A stretch of DNA of 64,000 nt from Escherichia phage W143: sequence record MZ189262.1. One strand, given 5' to 3'. The stretch's first letter is position 1. Each line of letters starts with the position of its first letter. The notes under the pieces were generated by a model. That model did no database searches. It saw only the letters and a list, made by a program, of their open reading frames with translations, and was not told where the DNA came from. The position numbers and the translations under genes were made by a program. Below, one piece after another: positions 58,057-63,378 of the stretch.

Positions 58057-60114
58057 TTATCCTTGAACGAACTTGTAAGGCATGTTTGTAATATCTATGC
58101 AAGACGCAATAATTCCGAGAGATGATTCTGCTTTCTGTTTAACATTTGATGAAACAAATGATGCAAAGTCAACTCTGTCTTCTATTTCAATATCATCTGT
58201 CATTGCAACCAATTCACCAGTTTCCATTAGACGATCACCGTCATAAATTACCGATTCGGTGAGTTCTTCCGTAGTCATAACTTCAGCTTGAATAAGCTTG
58301 TTGTTAGTTTTAACTGTTCCATCATTGTAAGATGCATCGGTTATTTTATTAATTTTGACCATTAGTCCACGTGGCAAAATGACTTCCATTTCATTTGAAG
58401 GCGCTAAACTTCCACCGGGTAAAACAACATTGACTTTATCAGCTCCAGTAATAACCCATCCAATTCCAACTAAATTATCGCTAGAATTAACAAGCCCTTC
58501 ATCATTTTTATCGATAGAAATGCTTAGACGCTTTTCATCTGGTAAAACACCCACAGCTGAATCAGTCATCCAAGTACCAAAAATGTTTGGATATAATGAT
58601 GTTGATACAAAATTTCTAAAATAAAAAACTCGATTTTTTACCAATGCTTCATATATTGAAGGTAACATTCGCTGTGAACGATATAAAGTAATACCTTTTG
58701 GCAATCGATCACCATTTTTAAAGGCTGAATCTAAATTATCGATGGCTTGTTCTATTTCGGGTGCTGTCAAAATACTTGTACGCTCATCTGGATTATATAA
58801 TCCCAAAAGAGCATTATTCATGTCTACATATCCTGAACCCACATATTCACGAATTCCGCGTTTTTGAGCCGGTGTGTATTTAGATGAATCTTTATTTTCG
58901 ACTATAGAATGCAATGACCATCCAACGGTAAGAGCATATCCACGTAATTCTCTTCGAATAATCTTTGTTTTTATTGCATTCCAAGAATTTTGCACTAACT
59001 CATTTGCAGCATCTTGATTTAAATGCGAATGCTTGTTAATATTTCTTTCTAACCAAGCACTTTTATATTTTTCTAAAGTATCATCGACTATAGAAGCAAT
59101 AGTTTCTAAAGTTTTTATTGAAGTAATAGATTCTTTTCGTAATCTTTCTAAAGCTTTATTTTTTATTTCTGCATTAACATCAGATTCTTTATCTTCAGGA
59201 ATTATAGAAGCTTCTCTGAATGCCATTCCAGCTGTAACACTATTAAGAGCATTTTCTAATGCAAATCCTGAAGTAGAAATAACGGTTAATTCGTTAGCAT
59301 CAGAAATTAAAGGCGCGTCGGCGGGTTTATTTAATTCTGCTGCTGAAGCCTCAAATTTTTGAAACATTGGTGTTTCAAATCTAGAAGATTCCAATGACTG
59401 ACTTTGTGCAATTGCTCTACGTGAAATTTTAACTTTAACTATTACAGCCTGGTCAGAACGTTTATCGTTTTCTTGCGCAATAGATGCTGCAATTGCCTCA
59501 TTTTTAGTTACTTGAACCCCAGTATCTTTATTGATATAAACATCGCCGACTTTCGATTCAACTTTAGTAAAGAGCTCGGTACTAATTTCCGGAACTCCTG
59601 GAATGTCTTCTAGTGATACATTTTTGCGATGTATAAGAATATATGCATACTTTTTATCATAATCCCAGAGTTCCTTAAGAAGGACGTATCTGCCGCCTGA
59701 ACGACTACGGATAAGTCTATCAGCAATAACTTGAATTTGACGAGCTTGACCAGCAGTTTTAGACTTAAGAATACGAAGCATGCAGGCATCAATTTTATAC
59801 TGACGCATCGTCTGCATTGCAACAGTAAAAACTGAATTGATATAATTAATTGGGCTTGGACCGAGACCTTTCAATTTAGCAATTGAACCTTTAGCAGTTA
59901 ATGTAAAAGGAACAATATGCATCATTTTATCGCCCATTTTTAAATCGCGATTAGTATCACCTCCAGATGTATAGGTACATAAACGAAAGCCTGGTTGTTC
60001 AATTGCGTCATCAACATGAACTGAAAAAATTTGTGGTATTTTCTTCTTTGGATTTAAGTTTGTAATCGGAAGAGTAGTATCTTCGTCAAATAATTCTGTA
60101 ATAAGTTCCATCAT
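58057..60114 (-). CDS. alt: Alt ADP-ribosyltransferase (head-packaged), paralogue 2
   Basis: 685 aa; N-terminus MMELITELFDEDTTLPITNL...; ART signature R (LYRSQ), STS (FVSTSL), E-x-E (EMEVILPRG). Confidence 0.8.
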   Translation of the reverse strand: MMELITELFDEDTTLPITNLNPKKKIPQIFSVHVDDAIEQPGFRLCTYTSGGDTNRDLKMGDKMMHIVPFTLTAKGSIAKLKGLGPSPINYINSVFTVAMQTMRQYKIDACMLRILKSKTAGQARQIQVIADRLIRSRSGGRYVLLKELWDYDKKYAYILIHRKNVSLEDIPGVPEISTELFTKVESKVGDVYINKDTGVQVTKNEAIAASIAQENDKRSDQAVIVKVKISRRAIAQSQSLESSRFETPMFQKFEASAAELNKPADAPLISDANELTVISTSGFALENALNSVTAGMAFREASIIPEDKESDVNAEIKNKALERLRKESITSIKTLETIASIVDDTLEKYKSAWLERNINKHSHLNQDAANELVQNSWNAIKTKIIRRELRGYALTVGWSLHSIVENKDSSKYTPAQKRGIREYVGSGYVDMNNALLGLYNPDERTSILTAPEIEQAIDNLDSAFKNGDRLPKGITLYRSQRMLPSIYEALVKNRVFYFRNFVSTSLYPNIFGTWMTDSAVGVLPDEKRLSISIDKNDEGLVNSSDNLVGIGWVITGADKVNVVLPGGSLAPSNEMEVILPRGLMVKINKITDASYNDGTVKTNNKLIQAEVMTTEELTESVIYDGDRLMETGELVAMTDDIEIEDRVDFASFVSSNVKQKAESSLGIIASCIDITNMPYKFVQG

Positions 60115-60163: not shown

Positions 60164-60352
60164 TTAATAATCTATTGGTAAGAGAGTACGGTATATTTCA
60201 AACTTTGGACCTTTTTCATAGGCATCAAATGTTTCTGTGAATTTATTATAAGCATATGCATCTATAAATTCAATCATAATTTGTGATACAGAAGTAGAAA
60301 CATCTCCACCTTCTTTTTGAGCAACGACAATTGTTTCTAAGTAAGCTTTCAT
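60164..60352 (-). CDS. hypothetical small protein downstream of ligase
   Basis: 62 aa ORF overlapping the ligase stop. Confidence 0.4.
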   Translation of the reverse strand: MKAYLETIVVAQKEGGDVSTSVSQIMIEFIDAYAYNKFTETFDAYEKGPKFEIYRTLLPIDY

Positions 60353-61812
60353 AGACCAGTTACCTCATGAAAATCACCAAATACATCCTCGAATGTATTA
60401 GCTTTAGTTTTATCTTCACGTAAACGAATCGCAATCGGAAGAAATAATTTAACGTAATCAGTGCGGCCATCAGATTTTAACCAACCGTTGCATTCGCACT
60501 CTAGAATTTTTCCAATATAATAATTTTGGTTTTCCATAATGCGAGTACGGTCAAGTTCATGTGATTTTACACCGGCTTTATCTTTTAAGCCTGAACCAGC
60601 ATTTACTTTAATTTTTCCACACTCTGATTCAAGAATAAATCCACCTGCTTTAGTAGGGTCTTTACGGTGAGGATAAATTCCTACAATTTTTAAATCAACA
60701 TCAATTACTTCTTTAAATTTATAGAGATTTTTTGAACGAGCATTTTCCCATAATCCATCGATATTTTTGAGAATAATACCTTCAAGACCTTGGTCAATAT
60801 ACTTTTTATAAATTACCTTAGCTTCATCTAGGTTATTTACTAGCTGGTTTTCAATTAAAATTACTTTATCATATCCTGATGTCATTTGTTCTAGTTTAGA
60901 AAAACGTACATCATATTTTAAACGAAACGCCGGAAGACCGTATATTTCTACCAACGGGACATAATCCCAGACCTGAAACTTCATACATTGAGCTTCTTTT
61001 TCAGAAATGGTTCCTTTTAAAGATTTATTGGCGATTCCATTAGAAGTAGTACGAGATTCCGCTACTTCGGCGAATTCTTTAGCTTTACTAATTTCAGGAT
61101 AAGCATCAAAAAGAAAATCTAGGCCTTCTGGTTCCTTTTTAACTTGCTCATGGTATACCAATTCGCCATCAATTAACACGCCTTCTGGATGAATCTGGCG
61201 GGCTTCAGCAGTCATTTTGATTAACTCTTCCTTAAGAAGATCTAATCCTAGATATTCATTACCAGCTCGTGATAAAAGACGAACATCATCTAATTCATCA
61301 CCTCGGACTTCAGCAAAACACCGAGCTCCATCTGCTTTTAACTGTGCAAAAGCTGGAAACTTGATATTCTTACTAATGCCTTTTTCATCATAAGAACTTG
61401 CCAGCATTTGAGGTTGTTCAGGAATTAAACCTGGCCAAACTTTGTTTGCAATAGATACTGAAGCACCGCATTCAAGGTCTCGCATCATAACTCGACGTAA
61501 AACTTCAACATCATCCTTTTTACCATCAGTGATATATCCAGTTAATTCCTCAATTGCTGCATTTCCAGTCAATTTCCGAGTAGCTAACGTAAATTCAATA
61601 AAGTCAAGCATATCGGTAATGGTCAGCATTCCAAAACTCTGGGTAGCAATACCAGGCTTAGGCCATTTCTTGATATAATACTGTAACCCACGAGAATAAG
61701 TCAGACGATATACTCGTTTAAGCAATTCATTACCTTTATTCTTTTCAAGAATTGCTTGCTTCTGCTTAGTTGATCCAATAGATGCTATTTCATTCAGAAT
61801 TTTAAGAATCAT
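60349..61812 (-). CDS. 30: ATP-dependent DNA ligase
   Basis: 487 aa; adenylation motif KADGARCF. Confidence 0.9.
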   Translation of the reverse strand: MILKILNEIASIGSTKQKQAILEKNKGNELLKRVYRLTYSRGLQYYIKKWPKPGIATQSFGMLTITDMLDFIEFTLATRKLTGNAAIEELTGYITDGKKDDVEVLRRVMMRDLECGASVSIANKVWPGLIPEQPQMLASSYDEKGISKNIKFPAFAQLKADGARCFAEVRGDELDDVRLLSRAGNEYLGLDLLKEELIKMTAEARQIHPEGVLIDGELVYHEQVKKEPEGLDFLFDAYPEISKAKEFAEVAESRTTSNGIANKSLKGTISEKEAQCMKFQVWDYVPLVEIYGLPAFRLKYDVRFSKLEQMTSGYDKVILIENQLVNNLDEAKVIYKKYIDQGLEGIILKNIDGLWENARSKNLYKFKEVIDVDLKIVGIYPHRKDPTKAGGFILESECGKIKVNAGSGLKDKAGVKSHELDRTRIMENQNYYIGKILECECNGWLKSDGRTDYVKLFLPIAIRLREDKTKANTFEDVFGDFHEVTGL

Positions 61813-62078
61813 TGTTCATCCTTCAGAGTTTGATTTACATTTCTATTATAAATCAATTCATCATTAAGCTCAGGCAAAGACTTATGATATGTAGTTCTAA
61901 CTTTATTTCCTTGCATCCAGTGCTTGACGTAAATGAAACCTTGCTCTACACATTTTTTAAAAATTCGTTCATCCTTTTGAGCACGGAACTCTGGATTACA
62001 TCTAAAAAATTGATTTACGTGACCGTAATCACGTGTAGTATTACCTTCATTTTCATAAATAGTATGAACAACAAACAT
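61809..62078 (-). CDS. hypothetical protein (30.1-like position)
   Basis: 89 aa ORF, ATGA overlap with ligase. Confidence 0.45.
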   Translation of the reverse strand: MFVVHTIYENEGNTTRDYGHVNQFFRCNPEFRAQKDERIFKKCVEQGFIYVKHWMQGNKVRTTYHKSLPELNDELIYNRNVNQTLKDEQ

Positions 62079-62917
62079 TAGAATGCTCCTTGAAAAATAT
62101 TATCACCACTAGTAGGTCTATTATACAAATACTCTATGCCACCAGGTTTAATATAGTTCCATGTCTGAAACGGATGTGTCTGATATGGATGATATAGATG
62201 ATTATAAGGATTTAATCCAGGCGTTCTCCAGGTAGTGTTCCAAGGAAAAGAATCGTTTTTAACCATCTTCTCAATTAAATCTTTTATAGCTTTTTCACTA
62301 TCAAAACTTTCTTTATTTTCCTTTAGTGAAAAAAGCTTATTTTCTACATCATTCCATGTATAAACTCGCTGCGCAGTTTTTGGAATATTGTCACGCTCTC
62401 CTCGAGCCATCCAATAAACTGGAACATTTAATATTTCACTCGCATGATCGCAGTGATGGGCGAGATCGTCAATATAACAAATTACGTTATATTTCTCTTT
62501 TGCCTTTTTGAACAGCTCTTCTTTTGAAGAATCATGACCACACATCATTACTTCTGAGAAGGCACCAGGAAAAAGAGCATTCAAATTAAATTGACGATTC
62601 AACAGAGCGTCAATAGAATCACCCAATGCTGTAACAGCTACAAAATTATAATCTTCTTTTAATTTGTTAATTACACACAGGGCATCTTTATATGGAGACA
62701 AGTAACGAATAAAATCTGATCGATTGTATTTTTCAATTAACTTGACACCAAGTTCTTCATCACAATTAAAGAGTTTACCTGGAGAAATAAATTTCTCATC
62801 TTGGATCATTTTTAAAATATGTTCTAACGGAAGATTATATTTCTGAGCAAAATAAGGAAGACCTGATTGCCAGCTTAAACATACTCCATCAATATCAGTT
62901 AAAATAGTAGGCTTCAT
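62078..62917 (-). CDS. HAD-superfamily hydrolase-like protein (30.2-like position)
   Basis: 279 aa; N-terminal DxDGV motif I (ILTDIDGV), later VAVTA and K...YIDD motifs. Confidence 0.55.
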   Translation of the reverse strand: MKPTILTDIDGVCLSWQSGLPYFAQKYNLPLEHILKMIQDEKFISPGKLFNCDEELGVKLIEKYNRSDFIRYLSPYKDALCVINKLKEDYNFVAVTALGDSIDALLNRQFNLNALFPGAFSEVMMCGHDSSKEELFKKAKEKYNVICYIDDLAHHCDHASEILNVPVYWMARGERDNIPKTAQRVYTWNDVENKLFSLKENKESFDSEKAIKDLIEKMVKNDSFPWNTTWRTPGLNPYNHLYHPYQTHPFQTWNYIKPGGIEYLYNRPTSGDNIFQGAF

Positions 62918-63378
62918 AGAGAGTCTCTTAATAGGTTTAACACATCAATAAATTCAGCTTCGGTTAGTATTGTATCATCTTTTGTTAGACCACTAGCCAT
63001 GCTGTGCTTCAAAACTTTTCCTTTCGAGGCTTGTAATGCATCGCGAAAGCCCTTGTTTTGGAACGCTGCTTCAAAATATGCATTTGTGTATAATTCTTTC
63101 CACGCTGGAGAGTATCTTGAAAATGGAACTCCAATCCAGAACAACGTGCCACGGTCCTGAGCTCTAGCGTAAGACCTTCCAGCTTGTTGGGCGGCAAGCC
63201 CGGATAACCCAAATATACGTCTTTGCTGTTCAACATTTTTCACCTTACATCCTTGGAGGAATCCTTCGAGACCTCCAAATTGGATACCATCCATAACAAA
63301 AGGCCATTGGGCGAAATTACTTAATGCACATGATGGCCATCTAAAATTGCTTCTTATCTCTAGCTCAGACATTTTCAA
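62914..63378 (-). CDS. NADAR (YbiA-like) domain protein (30.3-like position)
   Basis: 154 aa; LSNFAQWPFVMDGIQFGGLEGFLQGCK and AFQNKGFRDALQASKGKVLKHS resemble the NADAR/YbiA core as I recall it. Confidence 0.55.
   Translation of the reverse strand: MKMSELEIRSNFRWPSCALSNFAQWPFVMDGIQFGGLEGFLQGCKVKNVEQQRRIFGLSGLAAQQAGRSYARAQDRGTLFWIGVPFSRYSPAWKELYTNAYFEAAFQNKGFRDALQASKGKVLKHSMASGLTKDDTILTEAEFIDVLNLLRDSL

Follow-up and report, generated by a model that had tools for sequence, protein, structure and literature searches.

A phage W143 ortholog of T4 gene 30.3 (adfN) is an intact phage-clade NADAR predicted to counter DarTG1

The genome of Escherichia phage W143 (MZ189262.1) holds, upstream of the DNA ligase gene, a short minus-strand ORF that raises the question whether this phage encodes an enzyme able to undo a DNA modification imposed by its host. 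The whole stretch of DNA analysed, hereafter the window, is 64 kb long. A sequence-only reading had given the ORF as 62914-63378, coding for 154 aa, had attributed it to the NADAR/YbiA fold on the basis of a short motif, and had suggested that the product reverses DNA ADP-ribosylation by DarT-type toxins or acts in nucleotide metabolism, next to a HAD-like hydrolase with which it might form a small nucleotide-processing module. Here we explore the locus in order to identify the gene, the residues likely required for its function and the substrate that its product is likely to act upon. The gene is very probably adfN, the ortholog of T4 gene 30.3, encoding a minimal single-domain NADAR of the phage clade that removes the guanine-ADPr made by DarT1 and thereby counters DarTG1.

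The minus-strand ORF ending at 62914 is uninterrupted. Its longest reading starts with a TTG at 63378 and yields the 154 residues given earlier; the T4 ortholog is annotated as a gene of 459 nt and 152 aa that begins with MSELEIRS, at an ATG two codons downstream of that TTG. Since the ATG at 63372 matches the T4 start and gives an 8-nt overlap with 30.4 that is identical to that of T4, 62914-63372 are the better coordinates. The ORF proposed earlier is real, its length is probably 152 rather than 154 aa, and the ATG is the likely start codon. In ATG numbering, the motif on which the first reading was built is indeed present at residues 18-43, as S18-N19-F20-A21-Q22-W23-P24 ... D28-G29 ... E36-x-F38-x-Q40-x-x-K43. 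The ATGA overlap with 30.2 may allow translational coupling. A promoter and terminator scan around the locus gave sites no more numerous than in shuffled sequence. All features are collected in Table 1.

Table 1. Features of the adfN locus, with positions counted from the first letter of the window
Feature	Position	Strand	Description or basis
adfN (T4 gene 30.3 ortholog)	62914..63372	-	152-aa phage-clade NADAR, predicted guanine-ADP-ribose DNA glycohydrolase
adfN stop codon	62914-62916	-	
adfN stop / 30.2 start ATGA overlap	62914..62917	-	read from sequence; T4 arrangement identical
C-terminal helix, residues 138-152, EAEFIDVLNLLRDSL	62917..62961	-	AF2 model helix 140-153 (154-aa numbering)
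His123 codon (CAC), clade-defining in phage NADARs	63004..63006	-	invariant in family alignments A1, A3
Lys43 codon (AAG), catalytic/ADP-ribose-binding	63244..63246	-	aligned to YbiA Lys; at least 90% conserved
Glu36 codon (GAA), catalytic	63265..63267	-	aligned to Glu of YbiA 'SEHYFQAQK'; invariant in family alignments A1, A3
30.3', out-of-frame ORF nested in frame +1 of adfN, 75 aa, DUF2883 (coding status doubtful)	63009..63236	-	PF11097 at 5e-43; T4 annotation
Gene 30.2, predicted HAD-superfamily, 5'(3')-deoxyribonucleotidase-like hydrolase core (residues 1-225) and disordered aromatic-rich tail	62078..62917	-	fold search and alignment
gp30.2 tail (FPWNTTWRTPGLNPYNHLYHPYQTHPFQTWNY...), residues ~225-279	62078-62245	-	~50-55 residues; aromatic/Pro/Asn-rich, pLDDT <50, predicted disordered
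DNA ligase (gene 30)	60349-61812	-	downstream of adfN
alt (capsid-packaged ADP-ribosyltransferase Alt)	58057-60114	-	~3 kb from adfN

Orthology with the T4 gene is clear. The product is identical to T4 gp30.3 at 149 of 152 positions without gaps, and is 100% identical to the copy of Shigella phage Shfl2. The 4-kb stretch around adfN is ~98% identical to many T4-like coliphages, and the minus-strand order 30.4, 30.3, 30.2, 30.1, 30 (ligase), alt.1, alt matches that of T4; the window is that of a T4-like coliphage, Tequatrovirus. The position upstream of DNA ligase noticed earlier is correct, the ligase lying downstream of adfN on the same strand. T4 AdfN (gp30.3; NP_049816; Johannesman et al., Nat Commun 2025, PMC11825919) and the window copy, 98% identical and of equal length, have in common the ATG start, the flanking genes, the ATGA overlap with 30.2, the C-terminal helix and the residues E36, K43 and H123. 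They differ by three conservative substitutions, L80I, I104F and I125M, the last of which lies two residues from His123, at a position where RB69 and distant homologs also have Met. Most GenBank records annotate adfN homologs as 'hypothetical protein'.

Of the 459 nt of adfN 24 differ from T4, and only these three codons change, which indicates strong purifying selection in the adfN frame. Because of this selection, of a PF08010 (Phage_30_3) match in a Pfam search that spans the full model (1-138) and scores 232.4 bits where 36 is the cut-off, and of homologs in 1,510 phage records identified by tblastn, the ORF is no chance frame. The frame of the nested ORF 30.3' is open for 76 codons in T4, the window, Gaprivervirus RZ and Dhakavirus CLBP2, with 7-9 stops in the rest of the frame; in neither phiKp_12 nor KVP40 does it stay open. 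Window and T4 differ within it almost exclusively by non-synonymous substitutions, which makes its coding status doubtful although the frame stays open in four Tevenvirinae genera. It is a conserved open frame without visible constraint at the protein level, and we leave it as a doubtful overlapping gene.

The fold was explored by profile and structure comparison. A search against the Pfam NADAR model, proposed earlier as the check on the assignment, did not give the expected result: PF08719 (NADAR/DUF1768) has no match to the product even at E <= 1, and neither NCBIfam nor PADLOC provides one. PF08719 lacks a match because Pfam assigns phage-clade proteins, this one included, to a family of their own, PF08010. 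We therefore reject the absence of direct PF08719, NCBIfam and PADLOC matches as disproof, since the structural and profile-profile evidence is NADAR-specific. The AF2 model (pLDDT 81.9, pTM 0.81) shows the YbiA fold, in which small beta-sheets flank a core made up of about five helices. Comparison of the broader family alignment with E. coli YbiA by hhalign gave 91% probability and an E-value of 1e-6 over 97 columns. PF08719 was matched weakly, with E-values of 1.6e-4 to 2e-3 that stay below threshold, by four of 11 divergent relatives and three of 10 long relatives, and YbiA reciprocally matches PF08010 at E 0.004. When the family profile was searched against the PDB, YbiA was the top match at a non-significant E of 0.061; single-sequence phmmer against the PDB gave one chance match only. 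The NADAR assignment is borne out by the hhalign comparison, by the weak PF08719 matches of the relatives and by published experiments on the T4 ortholog (PMC11825919, PMC11125620), and three independent lines support it despite the missing direct PF08719 match.

Relatives were collected by a word-indexed homolog search, which identified 22 close relatives, and by an exhaustive profile search, which identified 1,455 representatives; the best 150 of the latter were inspected, the weak tail lying beyond these. Among the matches listed, the PF08010 domain is also found in long multi-domain proteins (P0123, P0124, P0183, P0196, P0197, P0223, P0230), combined with BspA-type leucine-rich repeats, prolipoprotein diacylglyceryl transferase (Lgt), an FtsW/RodA-like membrane domain or an alpha/beta hydrolase, and in tandem copies. 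According to the published description the PF08010-type clade is found primarily in T4-like phages.

The catalytic residues of NADARs, a Glu and a Lys, reside in a helix with the pattern E-x3-Q-x2-K (E43/K50 in PnNADAR, E88/K95 in E. coli C7). E36 and K43 of the window protein align to YbiA E48 and K55 in both HMM and hhalign alignments. The catalytic Glu, whose retention in a proper alignment the first reading had made decisive, is thus present, and K43 is retained too. Every homolog compared, down to 31% identity, has E36 and H123, and at least 90% have K43, with Arg at this position in KARL-1; the set includes members of Pootjesviridae, a Ralstonia phage labelled Ackermannviridae and one phage of Dolichocephalovirinae. 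Both E36A and K43A mutants of T4 AdfN are impaired (PMC11825919). His123 is in strand 122-126 of the AF2 model (154-aa numbering), and a gapless extension of the hhalign alignment places it opposite YbiA E125. A His that replaces the Glu of the YbiA family or the Asp of the DarG1 (BC4488) type defines the phage NADAR clade (PMC11125620, PMC11543638). Outside Straboviridae, Rhizobium phage P9VFCI, where the protein is mis-annotated as 'homing endonuclease', Ralstonia phage RSP15 and Brevundimonas phage Gurke each encode a gp30.3 homolog of the His type that retains E36, K43 and H123, in unrelated neighbourhoods next to helicases or tRNA arrays.

What such a protein does is known from work on T4. 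De Souza and Aravind (2012), as cited in PMC11543638 and PMC11825919, recognised a clade of NADARs in the phage gp30.3 proteins. Hydrolysis by NADARs of the ADP-ribose that DarT1 links to guanine was shown by Schuller et al. 2023 (PMC11543638). Purified T4 gp30.3 was then shown to remove G-ADPr, not T-ADPr, in vitro, and to fail to rescue DarT1 toxicity in uninfected cells (Toxins 2024, PMC11125620); the methods of that paper list a construct of 'residues 1-208', which exceeds the 152 residues encoded by the T4 gene (L001:6308-6766). Cytidine-ADPr (C-ADPr) is not removed by the T4 enzyme either (2026, PMC12945103). Johannesman and collaborators mapped the DarTG1 resistance of T2 and T4 to gene 30.3, renamed it adfN, and showed that it is necessary and sufficient during T-even infection, its deletion rendering T4 DarTG1-sensitive (PMC11825919). 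Resistance in infection was demonstrated there for the T4 and T2 alleles only. T4 AdfN does not bind DarT1, and the purified protein removes ADP-ribose from DarT1-modified DNA. It barely rescues non-T-even phages and works fully only in T-even infection, for which it possibly needs another T-even protein (PMC11825919). The failure in uninfected cells, together with the poor rescue of non-T-even phages, points to an extra requirement in vivo.

The proposal that the gene reverses DarT-type DNA ADP-ribosylation agrees with these experiments (PMC11825919, PMC11125620). Orthology, fold, catalytic residues and C-terminal helix were observed here in the window copy itself; the enzymatic activity and anti-DarTG1 function come from the literature on the T4 protein, and we infer by analogy that the window copy would do likewise. 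In a host with DarTG1, infection would lead the DarT1 toxin to ADP-ribosylate guanine in the phage DNA, which would block replication. AdfN would bind the ADP-ribosyl-guanine in this DNA, and Glu36, Lys43 and the clade-specific His123 would catalyse hydrolysis of the N-glycosidic guanine-ADP-ribose bond. Removal of the lesion would leave unmodified DNA and restore phage replication. AdfN would in this way be a phage-borne orphan antitoxin, type IV-like, that does not bind the toxin.

Comparison with described NADARs places the window protein more precisely. E. coli YbiA (2b3w; PF08719), a riboflavin-intermediate N-glycosidase encoded in the LexA-regulated dinG operon (PMC11125620), shares ~20% identity with the window protein and has Glu125 where the latter has His123, and PF08719, the Pfam family of YbiA, gives no match above threshold to the window protein. 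NADAR antitoxins of the DarG1 or BC4488 type (E. coli C7, Geobacter lovleyi 8bat; PMC11543638) have a catalytic Asp in the last strand instead of the His, as well as an N-terminal helix/sheet extension, whereas the phage protein is the bare core. The window gene is, moreover, not encoded beside a DarT, and T4 AdfN cannot replace DarG1 in uninfected cells. AdfN-Bas32 and AdfN-Bas60, from Markadamsvirinae and Vequintavirinae, are likewise phage-encoded orphan NADARs that counter DarTG1 by G-ADPr removal, but were co-opted independently from other NADAR branches and work in uninfected cells and unrelated phages, whereas the T4 type needs the context of T-even infection (PMC11825919).

The neighbouring gene 30.2, 96% identical to that of T4 at the protein level, has the HAD fold that was suspected. 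It has no match to any Pfam model, and its structural model (pLDDT 82) is confident for residues 1-225. Foldseek gave 101 PDB matches at E <= 1e-3, with 3bwv, 2jao and 2i7d among the top at E ~5e-8; the best 50 of the 101 are almost all HAD-type hydrolases, deoxyribonucleotidases first. A profile search likewise put mouse cytosolic 5'(3')-deoxyribonucleotidase first. The family alignment shows no variation at D8, D10, K132, D150 and D151 and a conservation of at least 90% at T96, so that the predicted Rossmannoid fold carries HAD motifs I (DxD), II (S/T), III (K) and IV (DD). The disordered tail has a 1-residue indel with respect to T4, varies among homologs and is covered in about half of the homologous phage records. 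Within Straboviridae (T4, KARL-1, phiKp_12, phiAS5) the 30.3-30.2 pairing is kept with zero to two small ORFs in between. Acinetobacter phage KARL-1 and Aeromonas phage phiAS5 also keep the neighbourhood of alt, ligase, 30.2 and 30.3, with alt on the opposite strand in KARL-1. KVP40 and the three phages outside Straboviridae, Rhizobium P9VFCI, Ralstonia RSP15 and Brevundimonas Gurke, have a 30.3 homolog, but no homolog of 30.2 lies within 4 kb of it. Given these four divergent homologs, we reject 30.2 and 30.3 as an obligate pair; the earlier 'module' is a gene order conserved within Straboviridae rather than a demonstrated function.

Whether the window ORF is functional, and on which substrate, has to be weighed against the fate of adfN elsewhere and against other ADP-ribose chemistry. 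Broken adfN alleles are found in many T4-like phages (P0007, P0013-P0016, P0022; L012:12268-12681). Some of them switch frame between 30.3 and the internal 30.3'; in others a deletion fuses 30.7 or 30.8 to the C-terminal half of 30.3, by which E36 and K43 are lost. A C-terminal truncation of 15 residues impairs T4 AdfN, and the RB69 allele, which lacks the C-terminal helix, is defective (PMC11825919). We confirmed by protein and DNA alignment that RB69 has one extra T after CTAAC, resulting in a TGA and the loss of EAEFIDVLNLLRDSL. Recurrent breakage of this kind suggests recurrent loss of the adfN counter-defence in T4-like phages, and with the RB69 frameshift, the 30.7::30.3 and 30.8::30.3 fusions and the 30.3/30.3' frame switches being common in databases, the window ORF could itself be a decayed or non-functional allele. 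It has neither the frame switch, nor a fusion, nor the RB69-type insertion, and it reads through to ...RDSL exactly like T4. In view of the full-length intact frame, the presence of E36, K43, H123 and the C-terminal helix, the identity to the Shfl2 copy and the strong purifying selection, we reject decay, the probability of which is close to nil.

An intact NADAR might act on another substrate. A role of the bacterial and plant YbiA type, in which the product would be a metabolic N-glycosidase that clears reactive intermediates of the riboflavin pathway and forms a nucleotide-processing module with the HAD nucleotidase gp30.2, is extremely improbable: the Glu of the YbiA family is replaced by His, the T4 protein acts on DNA G-ADPr with a deletion phenotype specific to DarTG1, the KVP40, P9VFCI, RSP15 and Gurke homologs have no 30.2 counterpart within 4 kb, and the literature proposes no metabolic substrate for phage NADARs. 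The suggested role in nucleotide metabolism found no support. ADP-ribosylated RNA, or the adducts of the phage ADP-ribosyltransferases Alt, ModA and ModB, could also be the main substrate, with the anti-DarT1 activity as a side effect. The alt gene lies close by here and likewise in KARL-1 and phiAS5, removal of G-ADPr from RNA too is reported for every family of NADARs (as stated in PMC12945103, citing PMC11833690), and the need of T4-type AdfN for the context of T-even infection could be read in the same sense. ModA and ModB are, unlike the nearby Alt, encoded elsewhere. The DarTG1 sensitivity of the adfN deletion mutant is the only phenotype demonstrated in vivo, and no evidence points to T4 enzymes as a source of guanine-ADPr. 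The targets of Alt and Mod enzymes are arginines of proteins, which are not known as NADAR substrates. We consider this second alternative highly unlikely as well, and retain DarT1-made guanine-ADPr in phage DNA as the probable target.

The extra requirement of T4-type AdfN in vivo invites the speculation that gp30.2, whose start codon overlaps the adfN stop, is the T-even-specific factor involved. It could, for instance, act on a product or on an intermediate that carries a phosphate, or its disordered aromatic tail could bring AdfN to phage DNA under replication. RB69 keeps an intact 30.2 and is rescued by ectopic AdfN-T4 (PMC11825919); this fits the idea, as do the gene order in Straboviridae and the NADARs of other phages that need no extra factor. 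These observations are circumstantial, many T-even-specific genes could serve equally, and 30.2 is missing from the vicinity of several 30.3 homologs, which leaves the idea improbable.

For the T4 ortholog the gene family, fold, chemistry and role against DarTG1 are already published, from the prediction of 2012 and the mechanism of 2023 to the in vitro work of 2024 and the in vivo work of 2025, so that the finding is not new. It confirms that a short motif, read without tools, correctly led to a real anti-defence enzyme, and the practical value lies in replacing the 'hypothetical protein' annotations. An intact adfN predicts that this phage resists hosts that carry DarTG1, and sensitivity is predicted where the allele is broken, as it is in RB69 and in several database entries; the integrity of adfN is in this respect relevant to the choice of therapeutic phages.
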